A stretch of 64,000 nucleotides of DNA from Candidatus Aminicenantes bacterium (GTDB lineage: Bacteria; Acidobacteriota; Aminicenantia; UBA2199). The translations under genes and the position numbers were made by a program. The stretch lies in contig WVZO01000485.1 of assembly GCA_011772425.1 (NCBI GenBank), positions 40,514 to 104,513 on the forward strand. The letters run 5' to 3'. This document shows, one piece after another, positions 7,721-63,400 of the stretch (the stretch's first letter is position 1; every line of letters begins with the position of its first letter). Below the pieces are notes generated by a model that ran no database searches, was not told the origin of the DNA, and worked only from the letters and a program-made list of their open reading frames with translations.

Positions 7721-8470
7721 GTGGAATACATAAAAACGCCCGAAGCAGCAGCCATTGCTGCCAATCAATCATTAAAAGAAAGAAAGTATTGGCAGGAAAG
7801 ATTATCCGGTCAATTGGTAAAAACCGCTTTTCCCACAGACTATAAAAAACCCGGAAAAAAAGGCCGGGAATCACTTCATTTTACCCTTACCGGCGAACTA
7901 TTTTCAAATTTAATGAAATTAAGAAACGGCAGTGATCATCGAATGTTGATGATTTTTGCGGCCGGATTGGTGGCATTGCTGGGGAAATATACGGGGAATA
8001 AAGATATTCTTTTAGGCATACCTGTGGATCGGCAGTCGATTGAAGGTGAGTTTATCAATCGAGCATTGGTATTGAGGAATGTCATTGAAGACACTATGAC
8101 CTTCAGAGAATTGCTATTGCAAGTAAGACAGACCGTTGTCGAGGCAATTGAAAATCAAAATTATCCCATTGAAATCCTATTGGATGACCTGGGATTCGAA
8201 GTTGCCGGCAGTGAAGAGGGATTTCCACTATTTGATATTGCCGTGGTGATTGAGAATATTCATGACAAATCATATATTCAACACATTAATATGAGTATGG
8301 TATTCTTTTTTTCAAGGACAGAACAATGTGTGAAGGGTGTACTGGAATTTGATTCGTCATTGTACAAACATACAACGATAGAGCGGATCGTTGACCATTT
8401 TACTCATTTACTAAAACAAGTGCTTGCAAACGTCCATTGCCAGATATCCGATGTAGACATTCTTTCAGAG
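7721..8470 (+). other. C-half at the N-terminus of g3
   Basis: ..AAIAANQSLKERKYWQERLSGQL.. through ..ILSEEEKEQVLFDFNHT. Same length and layout as the g1 C-half, with no His motif. Confidence 0.8.
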
Positions 8471-34228: not shown

Positions 34229-35560
34229 ATGAACATAGAAGGAAAATTAAAAAACGACTTTGGGCCGTCGGAGAAGAAAGATTATTATGAGTTATCTTCG
34301 GCCCAGAAGAGATTTTACATTTTACATCAAATGGAGCCGCAGTGTACTAAATATAATATATCGACCCTGTCTGTACTGGAAGGCGAACTGGACCTGGAAT
34401 TATTGGAAAACATATTCCAGAGACTAATAAACAGGCACGAAAGTTTAAGAACCTCATTTATCCTGGTAGAAGGTAAACCGGTCCAGAAAATTTATAAACA
34501 TGTGGAATTTAAGATCGAGTATGATGAAGCAGATAGACCTGAAGAAGCAATATTAAAAGATTTTGTACGACCTTTTGATTTATCCCGTCCCCCCTTACTG
34601 AGGGTGAGATTGAGCAAGATAAATGAAAAGAAACACCTTCTTATATTCGATATGCATCAAATCACAGCAGATGCAGCATCTCAAGTACTACTGAAGAAAG
34701 AATTGATGGCATTATATGCCGGCAAGGAACTTGAGTCTTCAAGCATTCAATACAAAGATTATGCGGAATGGCAGAAACATATAAAACAAGAAGATTGGCT
34801 AAAAAGCCAGGAAGAGTATTGGTTAAACATGATTGCTGGAAAAATCTCCGTACTGAATCTTCCTACCGATTATTTGAGACCTGCAATTCAGAGTTTTGAA
34901 GGTGATTCATCAGGTTTTGAAATAAGCAGCGAAGAGACGACCGCCTTAAAAACACTGGCACTGGAACAAGAGACCACATTGTATGTGGTTTTCCTGGCAA
35001 TTTTTAATGTTTTCTTGAGCATTGTAAGCAACCAGGAAACGATCAGAGTCGGAACACCGGTGTCTGGTCGAATTGATAAGGATATAGAAAATGTCCTCGG
35101 GGTGCTTGAGAATAAACTCGTATTAGTTAATGATCCGGTTGGTGAAAAAACCTTTATAGAGTTTTTGGGAGAGGTAAAAAAGAAAACCTTAGAGGTATTT
35201 ACAAACCAGGATTATCCATATGAAGACCTGGTGGATAAAGTTGCAGCCGACACCGATATGAGCCGTAATCCTCTATTCGATATTATGTACGAATTTATGG
35301 AGTCTGATTATGAGATTCCGGAAATGGAGATATCATCGTTGAAGTTAAGACGTTATAAATATGGGAACGAGATAGGGACCACTGGTTTAGATTTGACTTT
35401 ACGAGGATTTGAGGAAGGAGATCGTCTGTTTTTTACTTTTGAATTCTGCACGAAGGTTTATAAAGAAGAAACGATCAAACGATTTATCGCTTATTTTAAA
35501 AGAATTGTATCGTCCATAATCACAGAGCCATTGCAAAAAATTGGGGCGATTGAGATTCTA
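34229..35560 (+). other. C*: full-length C-like domain at the N-terminus of g7 whose catalytic motif reads HQITAD instead of HHxxxDG
   Basis: YYELSSAQKRFYILHQ...LLIFDMHQITADAAS. The second His is replaced by CAA (Gln) at 34658-34660, and the Gly after Asp is replaced by Ala. Confidence 0.8.
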
Positions 35561-38500
35561 TCGGAAGCGGAAAAAAATCAATTATTATGTGGTTTTAATG
35601 ATACAAGTTCGCATTATCCCAGGGATAAGACCATCCATGAATTGTTTGAGGAGCAGGCAGATAGAGCCCCGGATAAAGTGGCTGTTGTGATGAATAATGA
35701 GTTCATTAAATACAGAGAATTGAATATGAGAGCCAACCGGGTGGCGAGAATGTTAAGAAAAAAGGGGGTTGGAGCCAACAGTATAGTAGCAATGATGCTG
35801 GAACCTTCAATTAATACTATCATCGGAATATTTGGGGTATTAAAAGCGGGTGGAGCATATTTGCCTATAGACCCGGATTATCCTAAGGATCGGATCACGT
35901 TCCTGCTGAATGACTCCACGGCCAAAATTTTATTGACTGACACAAAGAGCATTAAAAAATACCCTTTTACAGTTTTACAAGGCTTGAATATAACAAATGA
36001 CTCAATACAGGTAAAGGTTACAGGCACTCGTTCGCAGATTAAAGATTTAGATCATTTACCCATACCCAATCGATCCCTGGTGGATTATGAAAAGTACAAC
36101 CAATATATTGGTCAGGCAATGGTAAAGCATTGCATATCCGTGCAATCTACACGAGGATGTCCTTATAAATGTGCATATTGCCATAAAATCTGGCCTAAAA
36201 CCCATGTGTGGCGTTCCGCTGAAAGTATCTTTGCAGAAATAAAGCTTTATTATGATATGGGAGTCAGAAGATTTGCGTTTATCGATGATATCTTCAATTT
36301 GAATATTAAAAACAGTTCACGCGTATTAAATTTGATTATTGAAAATGGGTTGGATATACAGATTTTTTTCCCAAATGGTGTGCGTGGAGATATTTTAACT
36401 AAAGAATACATAGACCTATTGGTCCAGGCTGGAACGGTTGATCTTGCTTTTGCTTTGGAAACAGCGTCACCTCGGTTGCAGAAGCTAATTAGAAAGAATT
36501 TGAACCTTGAGAAGTTTAGAGAAAATCTTGAGTATGTATGCCAAAAATATCCTCATGTGATAGTTGAGCTTTTTACCATGCATGGCTATCCCTCGGAAAC
36601 AAAAGAAGAGGCCAGGATGACTTTGGATTTTATCAAGAGCATAAAATGGCTCCATTTTCCGTATGTTTTTGTTTTGATGATTTACCCCAACACGGATATG
36701 GAGAAATTGGCTTTGGAAAATGGGGTTTCAAGAGAAGCGATTCTTGCGTCCCAGGACAAACCTTTTCATGAATTACCCGAAACCTTACCTTTTGATAAAA
36801 GTTTTACATTAAAGTACCAGACTGAATTTACCAGCGAATACTTTTTATCCAAGGAAAGGCTGGTGCAGGTACTGCCGTATCAACTCAAGATTTTGACAGA
36901 AAGTGAAGTGATTCAAAAGTACAATAGCTATCTCCCGATTGATATTAATTGTTTGGATGATTTATTGGAATTTGCAGGGATTACATACGAGGAGTTGGGC
37001 GTCAAAGGATTACTGAATGAAGATTATATGGAGGTTCCTGATTTAAATAATAAGATGAGAAATGCCTTTGCATCTTCGTCAGTCAGGCCTTCCAAAGGTG
37101 CCCTGCGAGTTTTGCTCCTGGATTTATCCCAGCATTTTAGTAGAGGCAGCGATCAACTCTTTGACCTTATCGAGCCTCCTCTGGGGCTTATGTACCTTAT
37201 GACCTATTTAAACCACCGGTTCGGCAGCAATATTAAGGGAAGAATCGCAAAATCCATGATTGATTTTAACAGCTATGGAGAGCTGAAGTTGTTGTTGGAT
37301 GAATTTAAGCCAGAAATAATCGGAATACGAACATTGACGCTATTTAAAGATTTTTTTCATGAAACTGTCTCAAGGATTCGACAGTTTGGTGTGGATGCTC
37401 CCATCATTGCTGGAGGACCTTACGCTACAAGTACTTATCAGATCCTATTAATGGATCGGAATATTGATCTGGTAGTTCTGGGAGAAGGGGAAATAACTTT
37501 TAGCGAGATAATCGGGAAAATGATCGAGAACGATGGAAAATTCCTTCATGAGCATACCTTAAATAAAATCAGAGGGATTGCATTTATCCCAAAGAGTGAA
37601 GAACTCTCCAATGGCTTGGGCCGAGAGATAATTTTTATGGATGATCTCCCAAAAGAGACGTTAAATGAAGATGGTGAGAATTTACACCATGTCAATCAAC
37701 CCCAGGATTTAGCTTATGTGATTTATACTTCCGGTACCACTGGAAAACCAAAAGGTACACTTACTACTCATTCCAACGTCATCCGGGTTGTCAGGAACTC
37801 AAATTATATTGATTTGACCGAGAATGATAGGATATTACAGTTGTCCAGTTATACATTTGATGGGTCTGTATTCGATATTTATGGAGCACTCTTGAATGGG
37901 GCTTTGTTGCTAATGGTGAAAAAAGAGGATGTGTTATCGCCGGAAGTATTGGCTCAGTTGATTAAAAAGGAGGAGATAACCGTCTTTTTCGTAACAACGG
38001 CATTATTTAATGCTCTGGTTGATATAAATGTCACTTGTTTCGATCCTGTTAGGAAAGTTCTATTTGGGGGGGAACGGGTTTCTGTAAAACATACTGGGAG
38101 AGCTCTGGAATATTTGGGAAAGGACCGGATTATTCACGTTTACGGTCCCACCGAAACAACCGTTTATGCCACCTATTTTTTTGTTAATGAGATAGATAGA
38201 AACCTGGATACTATACCCATTGGTAAGCCAATTTCAAATACTACCGTATTCATACTGGACAATCGTTTTAAACCCGTGCCAATAGGTGTAAAAGGTGAGA
38301 TTTATATAGGAGGAGACGGTGTTGCCAGAGGATATCTAAATAGCCCGGAATTAACCTGGGAAAAATTTATTCCAAATCCTTTTACTGTAGAAGATCGGTT
38401 ATATAGAACTGGAGACCTGGCCCGATGGCTGCTGGATGGAAACATCGAGTTTTTTGGAAGAATCGATCACCAGGTGAAGATAAGGGGATATCGGGTGGAA

Positions 38501-41500
38501 TTGGATGAGATAAAAAATCATTTGGAAAAGTACCATCAAGTAAAAGAGGCTGTGGTATTGGTGAAGGAGGATGATACCAGGGGCAAACATCTGATCGCTT
38601 ATATTGTTCCATCCACGGATGAACCAATATTATTAACTGAATTGACGAAATTTTTATCTTTTCAACTGCCGGCTTATATGATACCCAGTTATTTTGTACC
38701 TTTAAAACAATTCCCGTTGACTGCAAACGGCAAAATAGATCGTAAAGCATTACCAGACCCGGGTGGTATAAGTTTAGACAGCGGTGTTGAATATATTGCC
38801 CCGGAAAATGAGGTGGAAATGCAACTAGTCGAAATCATGAGTAGGGTATTGGGGCGACCTAAAATTGGAATTCATGAGGATTTCTTTATGATTGGAGGCG
38901 ATTCCATCAAAGCTATCCAGGTGGCAGCGCGAATGAATGAGGCAGGATTTATGCTTAAAGTGAAAGACATTTTCCAGAATCCCCAAATATCGCTGTTAGC
39001 GTCTTTAGTAAAGGTTACAGAGCGAATTGGGGAGCAGACGGAAATCACCGGAACGTTTCCGTTAACTCCATTCCAGAAATGGTTTCTTAAAAATAAGGCA
39101 GCAGGCAGCTGTGTTTTTTCTCAAGGAGTGGTTCTCTATTCAAAAAAAGGGTTTGATGACGGTGCTGTTGAAGCAGTATTTAAAAAGATTCAGGCGCATC
39201 ATGATGTGCTGCGGATAACATTTAACCAGTTGGAAGACGGCGAGATCCTTCAAACCAACCATGGGTTGGAATATCCTCTCTCCTTGCAGGTTTTTGATTT
39301 AAAGAAACAGGAGAATGCCTTAAAAACTGTTGAAACAAAATCCCGGGAGATCCAGGCGGGCATTGACCTGGAAAATGGCCCGTTAATGAAAATCGGACTG
39401 TTTCACCAGGACGATGGAGACCGTTTATTAATCGCGGCCCACCCCCTGGTGATCGACGATATCTCGTGGGGCATTCTTCTTGAAGATATCGACCGCTTAT
39501 TTCAACAATATAGAAATGGAGAACTCTTTAAATTGCCTTCTAAGGCCCATTCCTTTAAGCTCTGGTCGGAGAAATTGTCCTGTTATGCTGAGAGCGAAAC
39601 CATCTCAAAGGAGAAAACCCACTGGGCGGCGTTGGAATCGGTTGAGGTACCAGAAATAGCAGGAGATAAAAAAGGGATAAATCTCTTCATTGAAGATACA
39701 GCTTCCATGTCATTTCATTTAAATGAAAATGAAACCCTTCGCTTGTTAACAAAGACAAATGAACCGTTTGGCACTGAAACCGCTGATATATTATTAATCG
39801 CCTTGGCTCTGGCAATGAACAAAACCTTTGGCCATACACAGGTAGCTGTTACCCTGGAAAGTGATGGAAGACCCGATATCTTTGAAGGTATAAATATAAG
39901 CCGGACACTGGGATGCTTTAGAACGTTGTATCCCGTATTAATGAATGTATCCTTTGAAGATGATCTGGTCCGGCAGATTAAAGAAATTAAAGAATGTTTG
40001 CATCAGGTTCCCAATAAAGGGATCGGTTATGGAATTTTGAGATATTTAGCCCCGGCAAAGCAAGGCGACCAACCTGATGCCATTGATTTCAGGTTAAATC
40101 CCCAAAGTTATTTTAAATACCGCGGAGAACGGGATGATCGTGTGAGTGTAAATGAACATCCAGGGTCCTTTACAATTGCAAAGGAACTCGCAGCCCTCCC
40201 CTTTGATTTAGGCTGGCCAGGGGAGTTTGACCTGGAGTTCCAGGGGATGATTGTGGATAAACGGTTGGTTATGTCTCTTTATTTTAACAAAAAATACAAA
40301 AAAGAAACCATTGAAACACTGCTAAATAATTATAAAACTCAACTGATTCGTATTATAACTTTTTGTGGAGGTCGGAAAGAACGAGTGCTTACCCCTTCGG
40401 ATTTAACCTACAAAGGATTGTCCATCGAGAGTCTAGACCGGTTAACCCAGCAGTACCAAATAGAAGATATCTATAAATTATCTCCACTTCAGGAAGGGAT
40501 GCTATTTCATTCTATCTATGAAAAAGAGAAAGTGGAAACAAAAAGGGTTCCTTATTTTTTGCAGACCTTCTTTCGCATAAAGATTAAGTTGGATCTGGCA
40601 TTGGTTAAGAAAAGTTTAAGTGAATTAATTAAACGTCACGATATACTGCGAACGGTTTTTATTTATAGGGAATTGGGGTATCCACTCCAGGTAGTTTTGA
40701 AAGACCAGCCCCTGAATTTCTACTACAAAGATATAAGCGGAATGAATGAAGAAAAGGAAAAAGAGGAATTTACAAGAAAATTCAAAGAAAAGGACAGATA
40801 CCTGGGATTTGATCTGGGCAAAGACAGTTTAATGCGGGTGGCAGTTATTCAATTGGAAGAGTCAGAATATGAATTTGTCTGGAGTATTCATCACATATTG
40901 ATGGATGGGTGGTGCGTTTCGATATTAATCTTTGAATATTTTGAAATTTATAGCAGTCTCTTTGAAGGTAAATCGCCTCAATTACCGGCTGTTACGCCCT
41001 ATAAAAAGTATATTGAATGGTTAGAAATACAAAATAGAAAGAAAGCCATAGATTATTGGCTAAAATACCTCGCTAACTATAAAGAACTCACGGGGCTTCC
41101 TAAAAAAGATGCGTTCCAGGTCAGTAAGAACGAATATAAATATGAACAAGAATTTTTGATACTAGATAATGAAATGACAAATGGGTTGAATCAACTTGCA
41201 GGAAAGAATCAGGTTACACTAAATACCATATTGCAGGCGGTTTGGGGAATTGTTTTAGGTGGATTTGTCGGGAAACAAGATGCGGTATTCGGCACGGTAG
41301 TATCCGGTCGCCCTTCTCAATTGAAGGGGGTGGAATCAATGGTGGGGCTATTTATAAATACAATCCCAGTTCGAATTCGCTTTGAAGAAAAAACGAAATT
41401 TATAAATCTGGCAAAAAAGATCCAGGAAGAAGCAGTCGAATGTCAACCTTACCACTATTATTCATTAGCTGAGATTCAAGCTCAATGTGCATTGAAACAG

Positions 41501-41884
41501 GGTTTGCTGGATCATATTTTCGTATTTGAGAACCTGCCCGGTGTGGAGCACATCGCTAGTAAGATGGGCTTGAATAATAGTAAAGATGAAATTACATTGG
41601 ATTTCTCCAATGTAAATACCTATGATCCATCCAATTATGATCTGAATGTGATCATCCTCCCCCGGGATCAATTAACCATACTTTTGAATTATAATGGGAA
41701 TGTGTATGAAAGAGAAGTGATGGAAAGAACAGCAGATTGCTTCAACCGGGTTATCGAGCAGATACTGAAAAACAGAGACATTTATATCGGTGAAGTCGAT
41801 CTTTTGTCTGAAGCTGAAAAAGAAGAAATTCTTGCCAGAAAAGAAGAAGATGGAGAAGGAATTCAGATAGATTTTGATATTTAA
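34229..41884 (+). CDS. g7 NRPS, C* (His motif lost) / A interrupted by an rSAM+B12-like cassette / T / E* (decayed) / C / tail
   Basis: 2551-aa ORF. Full-length C-like domain with MHQITAD (HQITAD at 34655-34672). A2 core LKAGGAYLPIDP at 35840-35875. CPYKCAYC at 36158-36181. A3 core LAYVIYTSGTTGKPKG at 37709-37756. T: GGDS at 38894-38905. E-like domain with HPLVIDD at 39440-39460 and FKYRGE in place of FNYLGQ. C: SPLQEGMLFH and HHILMDGW at 40889-40912. Ends ..EDGEGIQIDFDI. Confidence 0.95.
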   Translation: MNIEGKLKNDFGPSEKKDYYELSSAQKRFYILHQMEPQCTKYNISTLSVLEGELDLELLENIFQRLINRHESLRTSFILVEGKPVQKIYKHVEFKIEYDEADRPEEAILKDFVRPFDLSRPPLLRVRLSKINEKKHLLIFDMHQITADAASQVLLKKELMALYAGKELESSSIQYKDYAEWQKHIKQEDWLKSQEEYWLNMIAGKISVLNLPTDYLRPAIQSFEGDSSGFEISSEETTALKTLALEQETTLYVVFLAIFNVFLSIVSNQETIRVGTPVSGRIDKDIENVLGVLENKLVLVNDPVGEKTFIEFLGEVKKKTLEVFTNQDYPYEDLVDKVAADTDMSRNPLFDIMYEFMESDYEIPEMEISSLKLRRYKYGNEIGTTGLDLTLRGFEEGDRLFFTFEFCTKVYKEETIKRFIAYFKRIVSSIITEPLQKIGAIEILSEAEKNQLLCGFNDTSSHYPRDKTIHELFEEQADRAPDKVAVVMNNEFIKYRELNMRANRVARMLRKKGVGANSIVAMMLEPSINTIIGIFGVLKAGGAYLPIDPDYPKDRITFLLNDSTAKILLTDTKSIKKYPFTVLQGLNITNDSIQVKVTGTRSQIKDLDHLPIPNRSLVDYEKYNQYIGQAMVKHCISVQSTRGCPYKCAYCHKIWPKTHVWRSAESIFAEIKLYYDMGVRRFAFIDDIFNLNIKNSSRVLNLIIENGLDIQIFFPNGVRGDILTKEYIDLLVQAGTVDLAFALETASPRLQKLIRKNLNLEKFRENLEYVCQKYPHVIVELFTMHGYPSETKEEARMTLDFIKSIKWLHFPYVFVLMIYPNTDMEKLALENGVSREAILASQDKPFHELPETLPFDKSFTLKYQTEFTSEYFLSKERLVQVLPYQLKILTESEVIQKYNSYLPIDINCLDDLLEFAGITYEELGVKGLLNEDYMEVPDLNNKMRNAFASSSVRPSKGALRVLLLDLSQHFSRGSDQLFDLIEPPLGLMYLMTYLNHRFGSNIKGRIAKSMIDFNSYGELKLLLDEFKPEIIGIRTLTLFKDFFHETVSRIRQFGVDAPIIAGGPYATSTYQILLMDRNIDLVVLGEGEITFSEIIGKMIENDGKFLHEHTLNKIRGIAFIPKSEELSNGLGREIIFMDDLPKETLNEDGENLHHVNQPQDLAYVIYTSGTTGKPKGTLTTHSNVIRVVRNSNYIDLTENDRILQLSSYTFDGSVFDIYGALLNGALLLMVKKEDVLSPEVLAQLIKKEEITVFFVTTALFNALVDINVTCFDPVRKVLFGGERVSVKHTGRALEYLGKDRIIHVYGPTETTVYATYFFVNEIDRNLDTIPIGKPISNTTVFILDNRFKPVPIGVKGEIYIGGDGVARGYLNSPELTWEKFIPNPFTVEDRLYRTGDLARWLLDGNIEFFGRIDHQVKIRGYRVELDEIKNHLEKYHQVKEAVVLVKEDDTRGKHLIAYIVPSTDEPILLTELTKFLSFQLPAYMIPSYFVPLKQFPLTANGKIDRKALPDPGGISLDSGVEYIAPENEVEMQLVEIMSRVLGRPKIGIHEDFFMIGGDSIKAIQVAARMNEAGFMLKVKDIFQNPQISLLASLVKVTERIGEQTEITGTFPLTPFQKWFLKNKAAGSCVFSQGVVLYSKKGFDDGAVEAVFKKIQAHHDVLRITFNQLEDGEILQTNHGLEYPLSLQVFDLKKQENALKTVETKSREIQAGIDLENGPLMKIGLFHQDDGDRLLIAAHPLVIDDISWGILLEDIDRLFQQYRNGELFKLPSKAHSFKLWSEKLSCYAESETISKEKTHWAALESVEVPEIAGDKKGINLFIEDTASMSFHLNENETLRLLTKTNEPFGTETADILLIALALAMNKTFGHTQVAVTLESDGRPDIFEGINISRTLGCFRTLYPVLMNVSFEDDLVRQIKEIKECLHQVPNKGIGYGILRYLAPAKQGDQPDAIDFRLNPQSYFKYRGERDDRVSVNEHPGSFTIAKELAALPFDLGWPGEFDLEFQGMIVDKRLVMSLYFNKKYKKETIETLLNNYKTQLIRIITFCGGRKERVLTPSDLTYKGLSIESLDRLTQQYQIEDIYKLSPLQEGMLFHSIYEKEKVETKRVPYFLQTFFRIKIKLDLALVKKSLSELIKRHDILRTVFIYRELGYPLQVVLKDQPLNFYYKDISGMNEEKEKEEFTRKFKEKDRYLGFDLGKDSLMRVAVIQLEESEYEFVWSIHHILMDGWCVSILIFEYFEIYSSLFEGKSPQLPAVTPYKKYIEWLEIQNRKKAIDYWLKYLANYKELTGLPKKDAFQVSKNEYKYEQEFLILDNEMTNGLNQLAGKNQVTLNTILQAVWGIVLGGFVGKQDAVFGTVVSGRPSQLKGVESMVGLFINTIPVRIRFEEKTKFINLAKKIQEEAVECQPYHYYSLAEIQAQCALKQGLLDHIFVFENLPGVEHIASKMGLNNSKDEITLDFSNVNTYDPSNYDLNVIILPRDQLTILLNYNGNVYEREVMERTADCFNRVIEQILKNRDIYIGEVDLLSEAEKEEILARKEEDGEGIQIDFDI
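35600..38760 (+). other. g7 interrupted A domain; code DGFFLGVVYK (Ile signature)
   Basis: A1-A2 lie before the cassette and A3-A10 after it. FDGSVFD.., ..ITVFFVTTA.., ..VLFGGE.., HVYGPTETTVYAT, NGK. Confidence 0.7.
36044..37620 (+). other. Embedded cassette 1 (g7): radical SAM domain followed by a B12-binding-like Rossmann domain
   Basis: DLDHLPIPNRSLVDYEKY..VQSTRGCPYKCAYC (36158-36181) ..RRFAFIDDIFN..ALETASPRLQKLI..ELFTMHGYPSET... From ~37103: LRVLLLDLSQ..PPLGLMYLMTYL..PEIIGIRTLT..PIIAGGPYATS..DLVVLGEGEITFSEII..IRGIAFIP. Confidence 0.85.
39040..40380 (+). other. E* domain of g7, motifs decayed
   Basis: LTPFQKWFL.. is retained, but HHxxxDG reads HPLVIDD (39440-39460) and FNYLGQ reads FKYRGE (~40109-40130). 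Confidence 0.75.
41846..41881 (+). other. C-terminal tail of g7: EDGEGIQIDFDI
   Basis: Last 12 codons before the stop. Confidence 0.7.
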
Positions 41885-43571
41885 TGGAGATTTGCCTGTG
41901 AGTAACATAGTTGATTGTCTAATAATTGGGCATAATGAGATGGATTTTGTTGAATATGAGAAAAATATCCGGAAAATGGGTAAGGATTCCGGCGCTTACC
42001 GGGATTTGAATTTGAGTTTTATCTGTCATAACAATATCCCCCATCACGCTTCGGGAATTTTTAATTTATTATGTAAAAACTCCAAAACCAGTCTCAGCCA
42101 TGGAGAATCTTTCAGCGCTGCCATCGCTTACCTGGGCACCTATTTATATCGAAGAGGATTTACCTTTGATTATATTAACTCGTTCCAGGATGAGAAAGAT
42201 GTGTTAGCAGAAAAATTGAAGAAAGAAAATATTCTAACCATCGCAATTACAACGACTTTATATGTTTCGGTATTCCCTATACTGGAGATTGTGGATTTTA
42301 TAAAGAGGCGCAATCGCAGTGCCAAGATAATAGTAGGTGGTCCCTTTGTTTCTACTCAGGTTCGCAATGTAAATGCTGTGACATCGACATATCTTTTTAA
42401 CTCCATCGGGGCGGATGTTTATGTGAACAGTTCACAAGGAGAAGCCACCCTGGTAAAAATAATAGACGCCTTGAAGAATGAGCGCCCTTTGAACCGGATT
42501 TCCAATATTTATTATAAAACGGAAAATCGCAGTTATACTTCGACGCCTGTTATAAGAGAAAATAATCGATTATCCGAAAATATGGTGGATTGGAGTCTTT
42601 TTTCCCATCGAGTAGGGGAGTATGTGGTATTACGGACATCGATATCCTGTCCGTTTTCATGTGCCTTTTGTGGTTTCCCGGAACATGCCGGGAAATATCA
42701 AACAGCCAATGTAAAGGCAATAGAAGAGGAATTGGATTCATTGGGAACAATAGAATCGGTTAAAAGTATCTATTTTATAGATGATACGTTTAATGTTCCC
42801 ATGAATCGATTTAAAGAGATTCTAAGAATGATGATAAAAAACAAAACTAAATTCAAGTGGCACTCTAACTTTAGATGCCAATTTGCAGATAGGGAGATGG
42901 TAGATTTAATGAAAGCGAGTGGTTGTGAAGGTGTATTCCTGGGAATTGAATCGGGAAATGATCAGATTCTTAAAAATATGAACAAATCCGCCAATATAGA
43001 GAAATATCTTGAAGGGATTGCCATGTTAAAGGAAGCCGGGATCATAACCTATGGTTCTTTTATCATTGGATTTCCCGGTGAGACGTCTGAAACACTGCAG
43101 GATACGGTACGATTTATTGAAGAAAGTGGGGTCGATTTGTACAGGGCGCAGTTGTGGTATTGTGAACCTATTACCCCCATATGGAAAATGAGGGAAAAGT
43201 ATAAAATTACAGGTTCTAATTTTGAATGGGCACACGCCACAATGGATGCAAAAACAGCCGCAAACTTGGTGGAAGAGATGTTTCTTTCAATTAAGAATTC
43301 CCTATGGGTTCCTCAATATGGTTTTGATTTCTGTAATTTATTTCATTTGACAAACCGGGGAATCGATTGGGGCAAAATCAAAAATTTCATAAGAAGTTTT
43401 AATGAAGGAATAAAAGACAAATTAATAAATCCTTCTGTCACTGAAGTTAGTGCTGAAGTTATGAACCGGATAAAAAACGCTTTGATCCTGGATGATAGTC
43501 ATTATTCCGCTATCATGACAGATAAACCGGGAGAGGAAGATGATGATTTAATCATTGATTTTGAACTTTAA
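41874..43571 (+). CDS. g8 stand-alone B12-binding-like / radical SAM enzyme with acidic tail
   Basis: 565-aa ORF from TTG 41874, which overlaps the g7 end. The in-frame GTG 41898 has GGAGA at 41886-41890 and is an equally good start. Rossmann-like ILTIAITTT..AKIIVGGPFVS..SSQGEATLVKII. rSAM motif CPFSCAFC at 42648-42671, then ..GVFLGIESGNDQIL... Ends ..EEDDDLIIDFEL. Confidence 0.9.
   Translation: MIFNGDLPVSNIVDCLIIGHNEMDFVEYEKNIRKMGKDSGAYRDLNLSFICHNNIPHHASGIFNLLCKNSKTSLSHGESFSAAIAYLGTYLYRRGFTFDYINSFQDEKDVLAEKLKKENILTIAITTTLYVSVFPILEIVDFIKRRNRSAKIIVGGPFVSTQVRNVNAVTSTYLFNSIGADVYVNSSQGEATLVKIIDALKNERPLNRISNIYYKTENRSYTSTPVIRENNRLSENMVDWSLFSHRVGEYVVLRTSISCPFSCAFCGFPEHAGKYQTANVKAIEEELDSLGTIESVKSIYFIDDTFNVPMNRFKEILRMMIKNKTKFKWHSNFRCQFADREMVDLMKASGCEGVFLGIESGNDQILKNMNKSANIEKYLEGIAMLKEAGIITYGSFIIGFPGETSETLQDTVRFIEESGVDLYRAQLWYCEPITPIWKMREKYKITGSNFEWAHATMDAKTAANLVEEMFLSIKNSLWVPQYGFDFCNLFHLTNRGIDWGKIKNFIRSFNEGIKDKLINPSVTEVSAEVMNRIKNALILDDSHYSAIMTDKPGEEDDDLIIDFEL
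43533..43568 (+). other. C-terminal tail of g8 (free rSAM): EEDDDLIIDFEL
   Basis: Last 12 codons before the stop. The IDF-x-[IL] core matches g7. Confidence 0.7.
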
Positions 43572-50300: not shown

Positions 50301-53300
50301 GGAGGAGAGTTTCACGGCACTGCTTGAAGAAGGCCGGCAGGAGACCCTGGATTCCTATGAACACCAGGATTATCCCTTTAATCTCCTGGTTGAACAATTG
50401 GGCCTGGATCGTGATGTCAGCCAATCTCCCCTGTTCAATGTAATGGTTGCTCACATTAACCTGGGGAAACAGGAAGACAAACTGTTGATGGACGGGATTA
50501 CCCTTGAAGATTCCTCTGAACTTGAGAATTTTAACATGAGTGCCTTTGATTTGATATTTTTTATGGAGGAGGTGGAGGACCATATAAATTGTATATTCAA
50601 TTATAATAGCGATTTATTCGAAGCGGCTACAATCGAACGTATGTCCGTTAATTTCTTAACGTTCCTGGAAAATGCCGTCGATAACCCGGATTTACCGGTC
50701 TCGCAATTGAGTGTGATCGCTGAGGCGGAATCTCGAAAGATAATATGCGAGTTCAATGAAAACCAGCAGGAGTTTCCGTCCCTGACACTCCAGGAGCTCT
50801 TTGAACACCAGGTGGAAAAATCCCCGGGGAAAACAGCCGTTGTTTATTATAAGGATGAAATCACCTATAACGATTTAAATAAGAAAGCCAATCGATTGGC
50901 CCATTACCTAAGAGACCAGTATGGTGTGGGAAAAGGTAAGATTATCGGCATATGTATCGACCGCAGCATCGAGATGGTAACAGCCCTGTTGGGAATCATT
51001 AAAGCCGGGGCGGGTTATGTGGCCATTGATCCCACTTACCCGGAAGATCGCGTATTACATATGCTCAATGATAGTCAGGCTGATTTATTAATCATTGACA
51101 AATTAAGGCCCCACCTGTTTGCAAACTATAAAGGGAAAATGATTGATATCCATTCGGGTTGGACGGATATCTCGTTAAAATCCACTGAAAATCCGGAACT
51201 GATCAATGATTTTTCCGATATCTTGTATGTGATATACACTTCCGGTTCAACCGGGACCCCCAATGGTGCGATGCTGTCTCAGGGGATTTTATCCAATCTT
51301 ATCCAGTGGCAGGAAAATAACACTTCTATCGACGCTTCCGGGCCCTGCTTACAATTTACCTCCGTGAATTTTTGTGTCTCCTTCCAGGAGATAATGATTA
51401 CGCTGACCTCCGGGGGAGAAGTCCACCTGATTGACGATATTGAACGGCGTGATATCGATTATTTAATGGATTTTCTTTCAGAGCATAAAATTGAGTTGTT
51501 GTACTTGCCCTTTTCCTATCTTAATTTTCTATTTAATGAATCCAGCCGATGGGGAGAGAGTTTTAAGCATGAATTAAAGCATATTATCACTGCCGGTGAG
51601 CAATTAAAAATAACCAGGGGATTAAAGGAGTTCCTGGAGTGCAATCGACATATAAAACTGCACAATCATTACGGTTCATCGGAGATGCATGTGGTTACTT
51701 CGTACACCATGGATTATACCGAAGCGGATACCCGTCCCGTTCCACCGGCGGGAAAGCCCATTGCCAACACGAGGATATTTATCCTGGATGAACACCGTAA
51801 TCCCGTACCTATCGGCGTTTGGGGAGAATTGTGCATTGAAGGCAGTTGGGAAGTGGCAGGATATATTAATAACAGAGAACTTACCGATAAGAAGCTTATA
51901 TCCCACCCTGTTTTAAATGAAGGCAATAAACATCTTTATTGTTCCGGCGATATTGGGCGTTGGCTGCCGGACGGCAATATAGAATTGAGGGGAAGAAAAG
52001 ACACGCAGGTTAAAGTTCGGGGTTTCAGGGTAGAACTCAGTGAGATAGAGAGTAAAATATTAGCTGTAGAGGGAGTAAACGATTGTGTGGCAGTCGTGAA
52101 ATCGGATGAGAAGGGAGAGAAATACCTGGCCGCTTATGTGGTGGTGGAAGAGGTTGATGTGGGTGAAATTAAAAAGCAGCTCAACAATTATTTACCCCAG
52201 TACATGATACCCAAATTATTGGTACTGGATAAATTGCCTCTTATGCACAATGGAAAAGTGGATCGAGATAGGTTACCCGACCCGGAAACAATGGTAAAGG
52301 CTATTTATGATATTAAACCGGGTACGGTTTCTTCTTTATTACGTTCAGGGGATTTTCAACCGCAGGAATGGCAAAATATATCGCTCCTGGATGCGGATAA
52401 ATCTACAGTGGAAAAGGTGATTGCCTATTTTACCTCCCTGGTCCGGGATCAATTTCTTGATGAGACCGTTGGGGTGAGCCAGATCGATATTAATGTGCTT
52501 ACCGGGAAGGATAAGGAACGGTTATTGTCGGAGGCGGGTGAACCCGGGGTGTCGTCAAGCCATGACCGAACACTGCAGGGGTTTTTTGAAGAGCAGGTTA
52601 GCGAAACGCCGCGCAATATTGCTGTTATAGAGTATATGGAATGCTCTACTCTCACCTACGAAGAATTAAATAAAAGGTCTAATCAATTAGCCCATCTCTT
52701 AAGAAGAAAAGGCGTTCAACCGGGCACTGTGGTGGGAGTGATGATAAAACCTGGCATAGAGATGATTATCGGGATAGCCGCTGTTTTAAAGGCGGGAGGC
52801 GGTTACCTGGCCGTGGACCGGGACCTTTCATCAGACGAAGCGATTGCATTGTTAAAAGAGAACAATGTCTCAATGGTGTTGAGCAGCACCGCTGCCATGG
52901 GTAAACATCCTTTTAAAAAATTCCTGGGATTTGCAACAAACGGGGTAGAACCTCATATTTCCTGCATCCGCCAGCAGATCACTGATTTTAACGGTTTACC
53001 CATTCCTGACCGGTCGCTGGTGGATTATGAAAAGTACGGTAAAAATATCGGTTTGGCCATGGCTAAGCATACCATTACGCTGCAAGCCACCCGAGGTTGT
53101 CCTTATAATTGCCTTTATTGTCATAAAATCTGGCCGAAAAAACATGTGATTCGTTCGGCGGAAAATATTTACCAGGAGCTTAAGCTTTACTACGACATGG
53201 GCGTTCGCCGGTTTGTGTTTGTGGATGATATTTTTAACCTGGATATGGAAAACAGCAAGAAATTCTTCGAAGCCATCATTGCCAACGGCCTGGAGGTTCA

Positions 53301-56300
53301 GCTTTTCTTTCCCAACGGCTTACGCAGCGATCTGTTAACCAGAGATTATATTGACCTGATGGTAAAGGCAGGAACGGTTTCGCTGGGGTTGGCCCTGGAG
53401 ACCGCCTCGCCCCGGCTGCAAAAGTTGATTAAAAAGAACCTGAACCTGGAGAAACTCCATGAAAACCTAAAGTATCTTTGCTCCCATTATCCCCAGGTGA
53501 TCGTAGAGCTTTTCTTGATGCACGGTTTTCCCACTGAAACCGAAGAAGAAGCCCGGATGACTTTAGATTTCCTTAAAAGTCTCAAGTGGATCGATTTTCC
53601 CTATTTTCATATCCTGAAGATTTATCCCCATACGGATATGGCTGAGATGGCGGTACAAAACGGCGTATCGGCAGAGGCCATCGCCCGTTCGGCAGACCTG
53701 GCATATCACCAATTGCCTGAAACCCTTCCCTTTGATAAAAGCGTTACCCTTCGCTTCCAGACTGAATTCTTGAATGACTATTTCCTCCGAAAAGACCGGT
53801 TGTCGGCCAAACTCCCCTATCAAATGAGGGTATTGACAGAAGATGAAATCGTCCAAAAATACAACAGCTACCTGCCGGTGGACATTAAAACCTTTGAAGA
53901 TTTCCTGGATTTTGCCGGCATTTCAAAAGAAGAATTGATAACCCTGGAATTCCTGGATGAGGAAGCGGTATCAACTCCCGGTTTAAATGATAAACTCATG
54001 GATCATTTTCCTGTAAATAAACCGGGTAAGAATGCCTTAAGGATTTTGCTGCTGGATTTATCCCAGTTTTTCAGTGGAGAAAAAGATATTCTTTATGATG
54101 GTGTAGAGCCGCCGTTGGGTTTGATGTACTTGCTGACCTGGTTAAACCGGCAATTGGGAAACAAAATTGCCGGGAAGATTGCCAAATCACGCATCGATTT
54201 TGACAATTATAAGCAATTGAAAGCCCTGCTTGATGAGTTTCAAGCGGATATAATCGGCATACGAACCTTAACCTATTATGGAGATTTCTTCCATAAAACG
54301 GTTTCCCTTATCCGGCAGTGGGGCATCGATGTTCCCATTGTAGCAGGGGGCCCATATGCTACCAGCGATTTCGCCACTATTTTGCAGGACCCCAATGTAG
54401 ATCTGGTGGTATTGAGTGAAGGTGAGTTAACATTTTGTGAATTGATGGAAAAAGTCCTGGAAAATAACGGTGAGCTGCCGGATGACAGTGTGTTAAGAGA
54501 TATCCCCGGGCTCGCTTTTATCCCCGGTACCCATAAAGATGATCGTTACCGTAAAGAGAAGCGGGAAATTCTCCTGTTGGACGAGCTCAGGGATATGTTG
54601 AGTGAAGAGCCGGATAAAAACCCTGAACCTGTTAATGAGCTGACCGATCTGGCTGCTGTCATCTATGGGACTGGTTCAAACCGGCAGCAAGTCAGACTCC
54701 CGGTGTCGCATAAAAATGCAATTCAAATGCTATCCGGGTTAAGGGAAGATTTTTATGCCGGGTACAACAGCAGCGGCGGTGCGGAATTCCCGGTGATGAT
54801 CGGTTCATGGGTATTTAACGGTTCCCTGGAACAACTGTTTGCAGCCCTGCTGCAAGGGGGAACGCTGTGTGTGCCCCCGGGAGATACCCGCATTGATGAT
54901 ATCGGTTTATTGGAGTATTATAAGGAACGGAATAAGGAATCCGCCGGGACTTTCCTACACCTGCGGTTAATGTGGAAAGGCGGTCATAAAGGTATGAAGC
55001 AACTTCCAGGTGAGGAAGATTATACAGCACCCACCAACCAAATAGAAGAAGTTTTAGTGGATATCTGGTCGGAGGTCCTGGGAATAGGCAAAGACATGAT
55101 TGGTATTGATTCCGACTTTTTTGAGGTGGGAGGGCATTCCTTGAAAGCCACTATCGTGGTATCCAAAATACATAAAAAATTCAATGTAAGAGTACCGTTG
55201 GCTGAGATGTTTAAAGCCTCTACCATCCGTGAGTTGGTCCAATATATAACGGAAGCCTCTAAAGTTGAATACACCCACGTGGAGGCAGCGGAGGAGAAGG
55301 AATATTACCCCTTATCTCCGGCACAAAAGCGGTTGTATATTGCGCAGCAATTCGACTTGAAGAGTTCCGGTTACAATTTGCCCCGTATATTTATTCTGGA
55401 GGGAAAACCGGATGCAAAGAAGATGAATGATACCTTTAAGCAAATGATTGAAAGACATGAAAGCTTTCGATCGTCTTTTATAAATGTAAATGATGAGCCG
55501 GTCCAAAAAATCCGTGATCATGTGGAATTTGGAATCGAAGATTATCAGGTTGAAGTTGACGTTCCCATTGAGGAGATAACCCGGGGCTTCATTCGTGCTT
55601 TTGACCTATCGCAGGCACCGCTGCTGCGGGTGGGATTGATGCATATGGGAAAAGAAAAATATATCCTGATGATGGATATGCATCATATCATCACGGACGG
55701 TATTTCCATGGCGATTTTCGTCAACGAATGGATGGCCCTGTACTGTGGAGAGGAATTACCGGCGTTAAAGCTTCATTACAAGGATTATTCGGAGTGGCAA
55801 GGGCGGTTGTGGAAAAATGACTCCCAGGCTCTGGAAAGCCAGGAAAACTTCTGGTTGAAGCAGTTTGAAGGTGAAATATCCGCATTGACTCTCCCATTGG
55901 ACTACGAGAGACCGGGCGTATTTCAGTTTGAAGGGAAGCAATACATTTTTGAAATAGGCAAAGAAGAGACAGAGGCATTAAGAAACGTGATAAAAGAGGA
56001 AGATGTAACTCTTTTTATGTTTTTGCTTGCGGTTTTTTATGTTTTGTTGGCAAAAACCAGTGGTCAGGGGGACATCGTGGTGGGAATCCCGGTGATGGGA
56101 CGAAGGCATGCCGATTTTCAGTCGATAATCGGGATGTTCGTCAACTCCCTGGCCTTGAGGAATTACCCCGAAGCAAAGAAAACCTTCAAAGAATTCTTAA
56201 TGGAGTTAAAAGAAAGAGCTTTGAAGGCATTTGATAACCAGGACTACCAGTTTGATGAATTAGTGGATAGGTTGGATATTGAACGGAAACCCAATCGAAA

Positions 56301-60400: not shown

Positions 60401-63400
60401 GGTGTTTGCATTGCAAAACCTGGAGAAAGAGGAAAAGCGAATTCCTGGTTTGATAATGGAACCTTACTGGCATGAACGTACTATACCCAAATTTGACCTG
60501 GTTTTTGTGGGGAAAGAATTAGAAGATACAATATTATTTTCTATTGAATACTGTACAAAGCTGTTCAAAAAGGAAACCATAGCAAAATTCATTGAATATT
60601 TTAAGAAAATAGTATCTGAAGTTCTTAAGGACCCGGGAAGAAAGATCGCTGAGGTAGAGATTATATCGGAGGATGGGAAGCATAAAGTATTGTATGATTT
60701 TAATCGAACCAAGACCCAATACCCCGGAGAAAAAAACCTTCATCAATTATTTGAGGAACAGGTAGAGAAGAGGCCGGAAAAAATAGCCTTAGTAGGCAGT
60801 ACTCAGTATGCAGTAAGCAGTAAAAACAAAGCTGGAGAAGTGGGGCAATTAACCTACCGGGAATTGAATGCAAGATCCAATCAATTGGCGCGATTTTTGA
60901 AGAAAAAAGGAATTTCAACGGATACCTTTGTAGCTATGATGATGGATCGTTCACCGGAGATGATCGTTGGCATACTGGGCATCCTCAAGGCTGGGGGAGC
61001 TTATTTGCCTATTGATCCCGGGTATCCTCATAATCGCATTGAATCCATGCTGGAGGATTCCAATTCATCTATTCTTTTAACAGAAACCGGTGGTGTTGAG
61101 GATCATCATGTATTTACTGGGTTGCAGGGTTTGGAATCCAGTGATGTATCTTTGCAGATCACGGCTCCCAGGCCTCAGATCCTGGATTTTGATGGTTTAC
61201 CTATACCGGACCGTACCCTTATCGATTATGAAAAGTATAATCGATATATTGGGCAGGGGATGGTAAAACATAGTGTCAACCTCCAGGCAACACGGGGTTG
61301 CCCCTATAACTGTGCTTATTGCTGCCGGGTCTGGCCGAAGAAAAATGTGATACGCTCGGCGGAGAATATTTATGCAGAGGTAAAAATGTATTACGAGGCG
61401 GGGGTCCGCCGGTTCGTATTTATTGATGATATTTTTAATTTAAACATCCCCAACAGCAGTCGATTTTTTGAATTGGTAATCAAAAATAATTTAAAGGCGC
61501 AGTTTCTCTTTCCCAGTGGGCTTCGGGGTGATATATTAACAAAAGATTATATTGATCTGATGATGGAAGCAGGAACCATCAGTTTTCCCCTGGCGTTGGA
61601 GACGGCTTGCCCCAGGCTTCAAAAGTTCATTCGGAAACACCTGGATCTCGATAAAGTCCGGGAAAACCTGGAATATATAATGGCAAAATATCCACAGCTT
61701 ATCCTGGAACTTCATACCATGCACGGCTTCCCCACAGAAACCGAAGAAGAAGCAATGATGACATTGAATTTTATTAAAAGCCTGGAGCGCATTCATTTTC
61801 CTTATGTTCACATCTTGAAGATTCATCCCAATACCGGTATGGAGAAACTGGCTCTTGAAAATGGGGTTTCAAAAGAGGCCATCGCCTACTCAAGGAACCT
61901 GGCTTACCATGAACTGCCGGATACGTTACCATTTAAGAAAAGTTTTACAAAAAATTATCAATCGGATTTTTTCAACAATTATTTTCTTTCCAAAAACCGC
62001 CTGCTCCAGGTACTTCCTTATCAAATGAGAACGTTAACCGAGGATGAAATTGTCCAGAAATACAATAGCTACTTGCCCGTAGACATACATAGTATTGAAG
62101 AATTGCTGCAATTCCTGGGGATCGAAAGGTCTCAACTGGGGGTGGAATCTTGTCTGGATGAAGCGAGTATTGCTGTTCCCAATTTAAATGTGAAATTGGA
62201 AAAATATTTCCCCAAGAAAAGGTCTACTGATGGGTTGAGGGTTTTACTGTTGGATTTGTCGCAGTTTTTCACCACTAAAAGCGATATGCTTTATGATGTG
62301 GTGGAGCAGCCGTTGGGGCTCCTTTACCTGATGACCTATATAAACCGGAAGTATGGCGATAGAATTACCGGCAAGATCGCCAAATCCCGTATTGATTTTG
62401 ATAGTTATGGGGAATTAAAGGCTCTTTTGCAGGAATTTAAACCCGATGTCATTGGGATTCGTTCTTTGACCTATTACAGGGAATTCTTTCACCGGACGAT
62501 TGCCATGATACGGCATTGGGGATTCGATGTACCGATTATTGCAGGTGGGCCTTATATTACGGTTGAGTTTAAATCCGTTTTAAAGGATGCGAATATTAAT
62601 TTAGCTGTTCTTGGAGAAGGGGAGAATACCTTTGGTGAAATTATCGGTAAGATACTGGAAAATAAAGGAAAATTACCCGGGGAAGAGGTATTAGAAAAAA
62701 TTGTCGGGATTGCTTATGTTCCCGGAAGAACAGGCGCGAAGGCGGGAAAAGCCAGGGAAATCTTCATGTTGGACCTGCTCCAGGAACAATTATGCAAAGA
62801 ATCTCGTGAGAATTTAGAGCCGGTCAATCAATCCCATCATCTATCTTACAGCATATTTACTTCCGGTTCCACGGGCAAACCCAAGGGGACCCTTACCACT
62901 CATTATAATGTCAGCCGGGTGGTCAGGGATACCAATTATATCGATTTAACTGAGGATGACAGGGTATTGCAGTTATCCAATTATGCTTTTGATGGTTCTA
63001 CCTTTGATATATATGGGGCTCTATTAAATGGTGGAACGCTGGTAATGCTAAAAAAGGAGGAAGTATTATCTATTGATATTTTATCTGGTTTGATCAAAAG
63101 GGAAAATATCTCGGTATTTTTTGTCACCACGGCGATGTTTAATGCCCTGGTGGATGTGAATATCGGTTGTTTAGACAGTGTGCGCAGCGTGTTGTTTGGG
63201 GGGGAGCGGGTATCGGTGAATCATACCAGGCGTGCATTGGAACACCTGGGACCGGGTAAAATCATCCATGTATATGGTCCCACTGAAACCACGGTGTATG
63301 CAACATATTATAGGGTGGATCAGCTAGATGAAGCGTTAGGAACCGTACCCATAGGTAAACCTATATCCAATACCACCATTTATATACTGGATAAATATAT

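Follow-up and report, generated by a model that had tools for sequence, protein, structure and literature searches.

A radical SAM/B12-type cassette nested in adenylation domains of nonribosomal peptide synthetases from Candidatus Aminicenantes

Adenylation (A) domains of nonribosomal peptide synthetases (NRPSs) that are interrupted between core motifs A2 and A3 (a2-a3) have been described with class I S-adenosylmethionine (SAM) dependent methyltransferases as guests (families 3 and 4; TioN, MarQ and TtbB; Lundy, Mori and Garneau-Tsodikova 2020, PMC8341866), and these guests methylate the substrate once it has been loaded onto the thiolation (T) domain (PMC8341866, PMC11355689). All inserted methyltransferase domains in the 2020 survey are class I, and the word "radical" is absent from it (PMC8341866). 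Here we analysed 64,000 nucleotides from a Candidatus Aminicenantes bacterium (assembly GCA_011772425.1, contig WVZO01000485.1, positions 40,514 to 104,513 of the forward strand), a stretch referred to as the window. It holds a hybrid NRPS-polyketide synthase (PKS) cluster of 40% GC with all large open reading frames (ORFs) on the + strand. The A domain of one NRPS gene, g7, carries a cassette made up of a radical SAM (rSAM) core and a B12-binding-type Rossmann domain.

Host and insertion site are the same as in the TioN, MarQ and TtbB type, and the host motifs are likewise kept. The guest in contrast is a 550-aa two-cofactor rSAM/B12-type unit, where theirs is a class I Rossmann methyltransferase of 260–270 aa, and its chemistry would be radical at carbon as opposed to SN2 at N, O or S. 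The cassette thereby lacks the one trait that is common to all seven catalogued families, namely a class I SAM-dependent methyltransferase guest (PMC8341866). By analogy with the a2-a3 class I guests it would be expected to act after T loading.

On the side of the guest, the closest described systems are the class B rSAM methyltransferases PoyB/PoyC and EreB (proteusins), DscE (discodermin), CysS, MgmA/QCMT, TsrM and TokK, with which the cassette shares a CxxxCxxC barrel, a helical domain and a 5-stranded B12-type Rossmann domain. MgmA, TsrM and TokK are fold matches, while the glutamine C-methyltransferase of methyl-coenzyme M reductase (MCR), KedN5 and the RiPP (ribosomally synthesised, post-translationally modified peptide) C-methyltransferase families are profile matches. 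These enzymes are free-standing with the B12 domain N-terminal to the rSAM domain, which is the class 1 architecture of class B enzymes (PMC13331322), whereas the cassette appears permuted, lies inside an NRPS domain and scores far under the family cut-offs. DscE, a free-standing B12-rSAM enzyme whose substrate is a nonribosomal peptide, C-methylates it at Val and Ala positions after its release (PMC12858407), unlike the carrier-bound action proposed below for the cassette; the likely substrates of the latter would be aliphatic and polar amino-acid side chains. An NRPS accompanied by a separate rSAM methyltransferase was still called "an unusual enzyme combination" in November 2025 (PMC12858407). 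A cobalamin domain placed C-terminal to the rSAM domain, as in the cassette, is known from the Mmp10/DUF512 enzymes, of which Mmp10 is the sole characterised case according to a December 2025 review (PMC13331322). The Mmp10 domain is however 4-stranded and non-Rossmann while that of the cassette is an ordinary 5-stranded PF02310 Rossmann domain, apparently relocated by permutation, and Mmp10 is a weak fold match (TMq 0.29). To our knowledge, the in-line tailoring known in NRPSs is polar or flavin/NAD chemistry, performed by class I N-, O-, S- and C-methyltransferases, ketoreductases, oxidases and epimerases.

No description of an rSAM-interrupted A domain was found in a full-text literature search, most subscription journals being outside its reach. 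Surveys of interrupted A domains (2020, PMC8341866; 2024, PMC11355689) and B12-rSAM reviews (2022, 2025 and 2026) mention no such fusion, in agreement with an earlier note on this DNA, made by a reader of the sequence who knew of no rSAM guest in an A domain. Sources that name the homologous proteins give generic labels only.

Architecture and distribution of the interrupted A domain

Gene g7 is a single unbroken ORF encoding 2551 aa (Table 1). Its Pfam AMP-binding match is split into two stretches (1.1e-85) that enclose Radical_SAM at aa 639–802 (5.9e-19; 69.3 bits against a cut-off of 29.5) and B12-binding at aa 983–1094 (4.3e-7; 30.2 bits, slightly below the cut-off of 32.1), and AMP-binding_C, PP-binding and three Condensation stretches are also found. 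When g7 was aligned by MAFFT to the window's uninterrupted A domains, the insert stood out cleanly, beginning behind the LLT strand that comes after A2. The spacing from A2 to A3 is 623 aa in g7 as compared to 72 aa in the second A domain of g9, which corresponds to an insert of roughly 551 aa; the earlier note had put it at about 525 aa. A catalytic guest between conserved A motifs (a2-a3, a6-a7 or a8-a9) is what defines an interrupted A domain (PMC8341866), and the insert lies between A2 and A3. Downstream of it, motifs A3, A4, A5, A7, A8 and A10 of both g7 and g10 align with the uninterrupted paralogues. Core motifs A1–A10, the specificity residues and Lys517 are in fact intact in the hosts of g7 and g10 (its second A domain) when set against these paralogues. 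The specificity code of the g7 host, DGFFLGVVYK, is shared by the g10 host and by the uninterrupted second A domain of g9 and is what we take to be the canonical Stachelhaus code for Ile.

Apart from the insert length, the account of g7 in the earlier note held. The peptides it named were located exactly, LKAGGAYLPIDP beginning at 35840 and LAYVIYTSGTTGKPKG ending at 37756 in a single open frame that also contains CPYKCAYC at 36158–36181. Its claim that an rSAM cassette is nested between A2 and A3 of an Ile-type A domain agrees with Pfam order, alignment and code alike, and motif alignment and Pfam both bear out that the A domain resumes after the insert and continues through A10 into a T domain. 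The nested order, which it had left to profile searches, was recovered by Pfam with the one qualification that the g7 B12 score is just under its cut-off.

An AlphaFold2 (AF2) model of g7 aa 455–1612, spanning the A domain with its insert and the T domain, was obtained at a pLDDT of 86.8 and a pTM of 0.85. Uninterrupted A domains superpose on this model across the insert (ApnA A1, 4d56, TMt 0.90; PheA, 1amu, 0.72), as does LgrA in the thiolation state (5es8, TMt 0.66). The host A fold is thus predicted to stay intact around the insert, a point the earlier note had deferred to structure prediction.

The distribution of the cassette was evaluated by searches at several levels. A protein search with the insert alone (E ≤ 1e-5) returned 937 proteins, comprising NRPS-fused forms and stand-alone forms of 540–580 aa. 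With the whole interrupted A-T region as the query, at least 120 full-length C-A(rSAM-B12)-T proteins (C, condensation domain) were found at 47–62% identity, mostly from Aminicenantes and Acidobacteriota and also from Ruminiclostridium, Herbinix, Desulfobacterales and the cultured Clostridium tagluense, where the gene sits in an NRPS-PKS cluster. The closest relatives of the cassette itself are 63–70% identical and come mostly from Aminicenantes, Acidobacteriota and Clostridia, and a search of JGI metagenomes for an exact 56-mer came back empty. An exhaustive phmmer search over 1.84 billion representatives gave 1,112 clusters (50% identity) with E ≤ 1e-30; the best 150 of these are all long proteins (725–7548 aa) in which the cassette is internal in nearly all cases, several having two cassettes. 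Thirty close loci were examined further, taken from GTDB representatives of different species. The cassette is embedded in long NRPS reading frames at no fewer than 23 of them, which belong to Clostridia, Halanaerobiales, Bacteroidales, Aminicenantes/Acidobacteriota, Chloroflexota, Elusimicrobia and Pseudomonadota. Both flanking motifs were found at 13 loci, with A2 36–52 aa upstream and A3 38–47 aa downstream of the cassette. Accordingly, well over 100 independent proteins, spread over many phyla, share the insertion point, and the architecture is common in uncultured anaerobes. The window alone has three cassettes of roughly 60% mutual identity (tblastn with the insert), so that the feature is not unique to g7. 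The earlier note had held that an architecture both common and already characterised would refute its reading; common it is (at least 120 proteins; 1,112 clusters), whereas no report characterising it was found.

As the window comes from a metagenome and the exact g7 protein is absent from other records, the junctions could in principle be an assembly chimera or a frameshift artefact. Against this stand the 13 loci from different species with both motifs at like distances from the cassette, the at least 23 embedded cases and the full-length homologs described above, and g2 of the same cluster recurs in the independent Logan assembly ERR2564004. The cassettes of the window are moreover only about 60% identical and hence no collapsed repeat. 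Since the insertion point recurs across independent proteins, a chimera is excluded for practical purposes, and the nested A(rSAM-B12)A architecture of g7 is almost certainly genuine.

Some homologs depart from the single-insert layout. Five loci (L018, at 8464–9756, and L013, L014, L016 and L021) are doubly interrupted, with a second insert of about 340–420 aa between A8 and A10. The second insert of L018 resembles the N-acetyl sugar amidotransferase WbuX (78 bits, below cut-off), while protein P0211 has class I methyltransferase Pfam domains instead. An Aminicenantes protein of 1122 aa (P0123) has precomputed Pfam matches to Radical_SAM, PF19864 and B12-binding and matches only 46% of the query length; tandem cassettes or a fusion of another kind may be present in it.

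Fold, conservation and domain order of the guest

The AF2 model of cassette 1, built from an alignment of 90 homologs, reached a pLDDT of 92.1 and a pTM of 0.91. An rSAM barrel of six strands, arranged as six strand-helix units, is seen in it together with a helical region; the Rossmann domain has five strands plus a terminal one, which is the topology of class 1 cobalamin-binding domains (2025 review, PMC13331322). The best PDB folds according to Foldseek are AprD4, MgmA, TsrM, RimO/MiaB, OxsB, Mmp10 and TokK; as Foldseek is sequential, it aligned mainly the rSAM half of the cassette, at TMq values of 0.21–0.41. Together with the partial barrel, the CxxxCxxC motif and PF04055 scores of 69.3, 75.4 and 67.2 bits place all three cassettes of the window in the radical SAM superfamily. 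PF02310 is matched in the same polypeptide at 39.4 bits in g9 and 35.3 bits in g10, both above the cut-off that g7 narrowly misses. The rSAM and B12-type profile matches on which the earlier note had staked its reading are therefore present, the former above cut-off in three cassettes and the latter in two of the three.

Over the 90 cassette sequences, which share 48–62% identity, 39 columns are invariant, including the Cys triad, GGP and EGE. These columns are retained in all three cassettes of the window, even in the g9 copy whose host is dead. Such conservation speaks against a cassette that is catalytically silent as a relic or serves structure only, and against inactivity of the interrupted A domain itself. 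It is true that a2-a3-interrupted A domains were once proposed to be inactive (PMC8341866), and g7 has degenerate C and epimerisation (E) domains as well. Yet not only the Cys triad but 36 further columns are invariant, the A3–A10 motifs of g7 and g10 align with uninterrupted paralogues within a fold predicted to be intact, the cassette outlasts the decay of its host A domain (see below) and the family extends to 1,112 clusters at 50% identity. Loss of function in any of these forms appears highly improbable.

Pfam places the rSAM domain ahead of the B12 domain in all three cassettes of the window, which is the reverse of the canonical class B order; the cassette thus departs from the class B architecture with its N-terminal B12 domain. 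The first half of the insert corresponds to positions ~145–400 of the NCBIfam profiles, its last third to positions ~35–165. The same crossed pattern was obtained by BLAST against g2, the C-terminal part of the cassette aligning with the N-terminal domain of g2. The order was investigated further with an in-silico rearrangement in which the Rossmann part leads the sequence, rescored against the canonical profile models. The re-permuted cassette aligned as one stretch to BchE (20–354), BzaD (20–400), KedN5 (36–388) and the MCR glutamine C-methyltransferase model (49–397), and scores increased from 90.5 to 102.9 bits for BchE, from 57 to 70 for KedN5 and from 92.9 to 104.5 for ApyD.

These alignments point to a guest that is a complete class-B-type radical SAM enzyme in circularly permuted form. 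As a single continuous alignment results from re-permutation, the new termini of the cassette correspond to the canonical B12-to-rSAM linker, and the old termini would be joined via the helical region and the linker that follows it. In our reading, the helices represent the C-terminal domain of the canonical enzymes, and the linker connects the old C-terminus to the old N-terminus. With the chain opened at the B12-to-rSAM linker, the ends of the cassette should adjoin one another, and the unit should therefore fit into a loop and leave the host fold unbroken.

Candidate function on the carrier domain

The position of the T domain relative to the cassette was compared among homologs. In most of them the T domain lies 424–449 aa past the cassette and the full host A domain is kept. 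This distance is reduced to 192 aa in g9, where the remnant of the host (A') ends about 100 aa past A3 and leads into the T domain. With a dead P-loop and no A5–A10, the remnant is no longer an NRPS adenylation domain by its motifs. As a complete third A domain precedes it in g9, with no T or C domain in between, the module reads C-A-[A'(rSAM-B12)]-T. An Aminicenantes locus (L009) has the T domain 137 aa past the cassette with an A' remnant present, and an Acidobacteriota locus (L015) has a complete A domain, 20 aa, the cassette, 72 aa and the T domain, with no A' remnant. The A domains that precede the cassette in g9, L009 and L015 are of one conserved type (63–64% identity) with the same code, CVQYIAHV-K. 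Since the cassette stays directly upstream of T while its host A domain decays, it would work with the T domain and not with adenylation chemistry. On these comparisons the cassette appears to have its constant partner not in adenylation but in the carrier domain or, more broadly, in the thiotemplate pathway.

Stand-alone copies also occur in NRPS/PKS clusters, one of them in [Clostridium] polysaccharolyticum. At locus L001 (8230–13334), three tandem stand-alone permuted rSAM-B12 genes (572, 553 and 539 aa) directly follow an NRPS-PKS gene with an embedded cassette. Embedded and stand-alone forms interleave in a neighbour-joining tree of 244 cassettes with at least 22 switches, the tree being approximate (identity-based distances, midpoint root) and of qualitative use.

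Stand-alone permuted homologs are found outside NRPS clusters as well, in Pelagibacteraceae (L029, 5998–7665) and Kordiimonadales (L023, 5986–7611), and are 45–48% identical. Stand-alone AMP-binding enzymes (about 470 aa) are encoded close to both; a gene resembling the sialic acid synthase NeuB is near the former and a SPASM radical SAM gene near the latter. These neighbourhoods hint at the same partnership split over two proteins.

Action of the cassette in cis, on a substrate bound to the carrier, is quite probable. The host A domain, judged by its intact motifs and specificity code, would activate L-Ile and charge the module's T domain with it. The phosphopantetheine arm would then present Ile-S-T, or peptidyl-S-T after condensation, to the embedded rSAM site, where a [4Fe-4S] cluster on Cys644, Cys648 and Cys651 would cleave SAM to the 5'-deoxyadenosyl radical. 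This radical would take a hydrogen atom from an unactivated sp3 carbon, and the resulting substrate radical would most probably be quenched by a methyl group from methylcobalamin held in the Rossmann domain, yielding a C-methylated residue such as beta-methyl-Ile. A second SAM would remethylate cob(I)alamin. Taken as a whole, this explanation, in which a nested permuted rSAM unit tailors the carrier-bound residue and cobalamin-dependent C-methylation is included, is the one we favour by a little over even odds.

Several observations are consistent with C-methylation. The Rossmann domain of the cassette is covered by its alignments to profiles of cobalamin-dependent families, whereas AprD4 aligns over the rSAM half only. 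The PhpK-family gene g8 in the same cluster was counted as context for methylation. Host codes were read in 122 embedded homologs and presumably specify Ile in 28, Thr in 21, Gln/Glu in 12, Asn/Asp in 10, Val in 9, Leu in 7 and Phe in 2, with an unassigned DPEN-type code in a further 16. The host residues share the backbone and a beta C-H and have no side-chain functional group in common.

A number of points weigh against this account. No NCBIfam model of a curated class B subfamily (PhpK, KedN5, RiPP C-methyltransferase, BchE and others) was reached at cut-off by the cassette, the best score being 104.5 bits against a cut-off of 750. The best match by both PDB sequence (1.7e-15) and fold (8.1e-12, TMq 0.41) is AprD4 (6fd2), a 1,2-diol dehydratase which is not known to use cobalamin, and a B12-like domain is therefore no proof of cobalamin use or methyl transfer. 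Furthermore, the T domain of the AF2 model is in a thiolation-like pose on the A domain, away from the rSAM site. Cassette sequence and host specificity do co-vary (80 of the 122 observed, 16.7 expected), but this was discarded as a sign of substrate specialisation as whole-module duplication explains the pattern equally well.

Part of this evidence would suit a cassette that acts in cis on a carrier-bound substrate by radical chemistry other than methylation, with or without cobalamin; desaturation, rearrangement, cyclisation, C-C or C-heteroatom bond formation and an AprD4-like elimination are candidates. Besides AprD4 leading the matches, the class B families that match at around 100 bits, none at its cut-off, include the non-methylases BchE and HpnJ, and Thr, the second commonest host specificity (21 of 122), offers a leaving group. 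Ile, Val and Leu hosts however have no heteroatom for an elimination. AprD4 itself acts on an aminoglycoside diol and has the canonical domain order, unlike the cassette, and its likeness ends where the Rossmann domain, which aligns with the cobalamin-dependent families, begins. Methylation is also described as the commonest reaction of cobalamin-dependent rSAM enzymes (PMC11659888). Chemistry other than methylation is for these reasons a tentative alternative, with a real but clearly smaller share of the probability.

A third candidate followed from the E-like domain of g7. The second His of HHxxxDG is the catalytic residue, and it is missing from both the C domain upstream (HQITADA) and the E domain downstream (HPLVIDD) of the interrupted A domain of g7, while the paralogous E domain of g1 is normal (HHLVMDG). 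From its motifs the g7 E-like domain is probably inactive. The C domain that comes next (40472–41836) shares its motif with the C domain after the normal E domain of g1, and we read it as D-donor (DCL) type. A cassette that is a radical epimerase, producing the D-residue in place of the E domain that reads HPLVIDD/ESDGRP, would account for this combination. However, the T domains of homologous cassette modules are followed by about 40 DMHH-type C domains, read as L-donor, and by 22 E domains with intact HHLVxDGxSW, and the homolog census has no D-donor-type C domain directly after the T domain of a cassette module. The cassette module of g9 likewise precedes a C domain with DMHHIITDG. The radical SAM epimerases that we know of, PoyD and YydG, are not B12-type. 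The idea was dropped after this census of downstream domains and is improbable.

Cobalamin-dependent tailoring of the carrier-bound residue, if true, would mean that a radical SAM/B12 unit built into the module carries assembly-line chemistry to unactivated carbons. This would be a nonribosomal counterpart of proteusin-type hypermethylation and could explain heavily alkylated nonribosomal peptides of anaerobes. We give about an even chance to the wider claim that NRPS modules of this kind form a large and unrecognised family in which carrier-bound residues undergo cobalamin-dependent radical C-H functionalisation, probably C-methylation; it would comprise more than 1,000 clusters (50% identity), mostly from anaerobes, and rely on a portable enzyme made by permutation that is found inside A, between A and T, or alone, with many switches between these states. 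For enzymology it would offer a cobalamin-type radical SAM enzyme with a defined, tethered substrate, and a natural case in which circular permutation has made a two-domain enzyme insertable as a cassette. A design rule for engineering would be contained in the insertion site, the linkers and the natural gradation between nested and free-standing forms. The products of such clusters will be mispredicted by genome-mining tools that have no model of an rSAM guest. With Clostridium tagluense as a cultured carrier, the question is open to experiment.

Other features of the window

Table 1. Coordinates of the g7 domains, the cassettes and related genes in the window (nt positions of the 64,000-nucleotide stretch)
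Feature	Position	Strand	Basis
g2, free-standing; N-terminal CDGSH zinc finger followed by canonical-order B12-like/rSAM pair	5800..7707	+	Pfam, NCBIfam
g7, NRPS protein C*-A(rSAM-B12)-T-E*-C, 2551 aa	34229..41884	+	ORF list, Pfam, BLAST domain mapping
g7 N-terminal C-like domain; degenerate active-site motif HQITADA for HHxxxDG	34271..35605	+	
g7 host A domain, N-terminal piece (A1-A2; A2 motif 35840-35875), ends at LLTDT strand	35600..35968	+	
Cassette 1, putatively permuted class-B-type radical SAM unit (551-aa query; confident fold ~36011-37585)	35951..37603	+	Pfam, NCBIfam, AF2, Foldseek
Radical SAM partial barrel of cassette 1, six beta strands in model; CxxxCxxC 36158-36181	36134..36685	+	Pfam, AF2 model; three Cys invariant in 90 sequences
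Helical region (36695-37000) and ensuing linker (37001-37102) between barrel and Rossmann domain	36695..37102	+	Model secondary structure; re-permuted alignment
B12-binding-type Rossmann domain of cassette 1, five parallel strands and terminal strand; AGGPY 37409-37423, LGEGE 37478-37492	37103..37585	+	PF02310, model, invariant GGP/EGE
g7 host A domain, C-terminal piece (A3 37709-37756, through A10); code DGFFLGVVYK	37604..38836	+	
g7 module T (PP-binding) domain	38822..39007	+	Pfam
g7 E-like domain; catalytic His replaced (HPLVIDD; ESDGRP)	39026..40432	+	
g7 C domain; motif WSxHHILMDGWC in common with the C domain after the normal E domain of g1	40472..41836	+	
g8, free-standing PhpK-family radical SAM methyltransferase, canonical order (B12 then rSAM)	41874..43571	+	Pfam; NCBIfam TIGR04479
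g9 third A domain, complete (g9 aa 2411-2909); Pro-like code CVQYIAHVVK	50785..52281	+	
g9 A' N-terminal remnant; degenerate A2 motif KAGGGYLAVDRD	52561..52887	+	
Cassette 2 in g9, 59.5% identical to cassette 1; CPYNCLYC 53098-53121	52897..54537	+	tblastn, Pfam
g9 A' C-terminal remnant; dead P-loop LAAVIYGTGSNRQQVR, A5-A10 absent; runs into T domain 55051-55248	54556..54882	+	
g10 second A domain (Ile code), interrupted as in g7; ORF extends past window end	60708..63971	+	
Cassette 3 in g10, 60.9% identical to cassette 1; CPYNCAYC 61299-61322	61113..62723	+	tblastn, Pfam

The three cassettes and the free-standing genes g2 and g8 add up to five class-B-type radical SAM units in the window (Table 1). 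Gene g8, which sits between the cassette-bearing NRPS genes g7 and g9, aligns over its full length with TIGR04479 at 652.6 bits, above the cut-off of 600. The CDGSH iron-binding zinc finger of g2 was matched by Pfam at 9.1e-11, and the best NCBIfam match of g2 is BchE at 108 bits, far below cut-off. The circular permutation, cassettes 2 and 3, the dead A' domain of g9 and genes g2 and g8 are all absent from the earlier note.

The complete third A domain of g9 has Cys in place of Asp235, which we take to be the residue that binds the alpha-amino group, and position 331 is Val in one alignment and a gap in another (CVQYIAHV-K). Judged by this code, its substrate may differ from an alpha-amino acid.

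Four NRPS proteins of the window, g1 (from 323), g3 (from 7682), g9 (from 43555) and g10 (from 56730), begin with a condensation domain of which only the C-terminal half is present. The NRPS proteins that precede g3, g9 and g10, namely g1, g7 and g9, end in a complete C domain, with g2 and g8 intervening in two of the cases. Homologs of about 1870 aa likewise read half-C-A(rSAM)-T-C, and the half condensation domain could serve docking.

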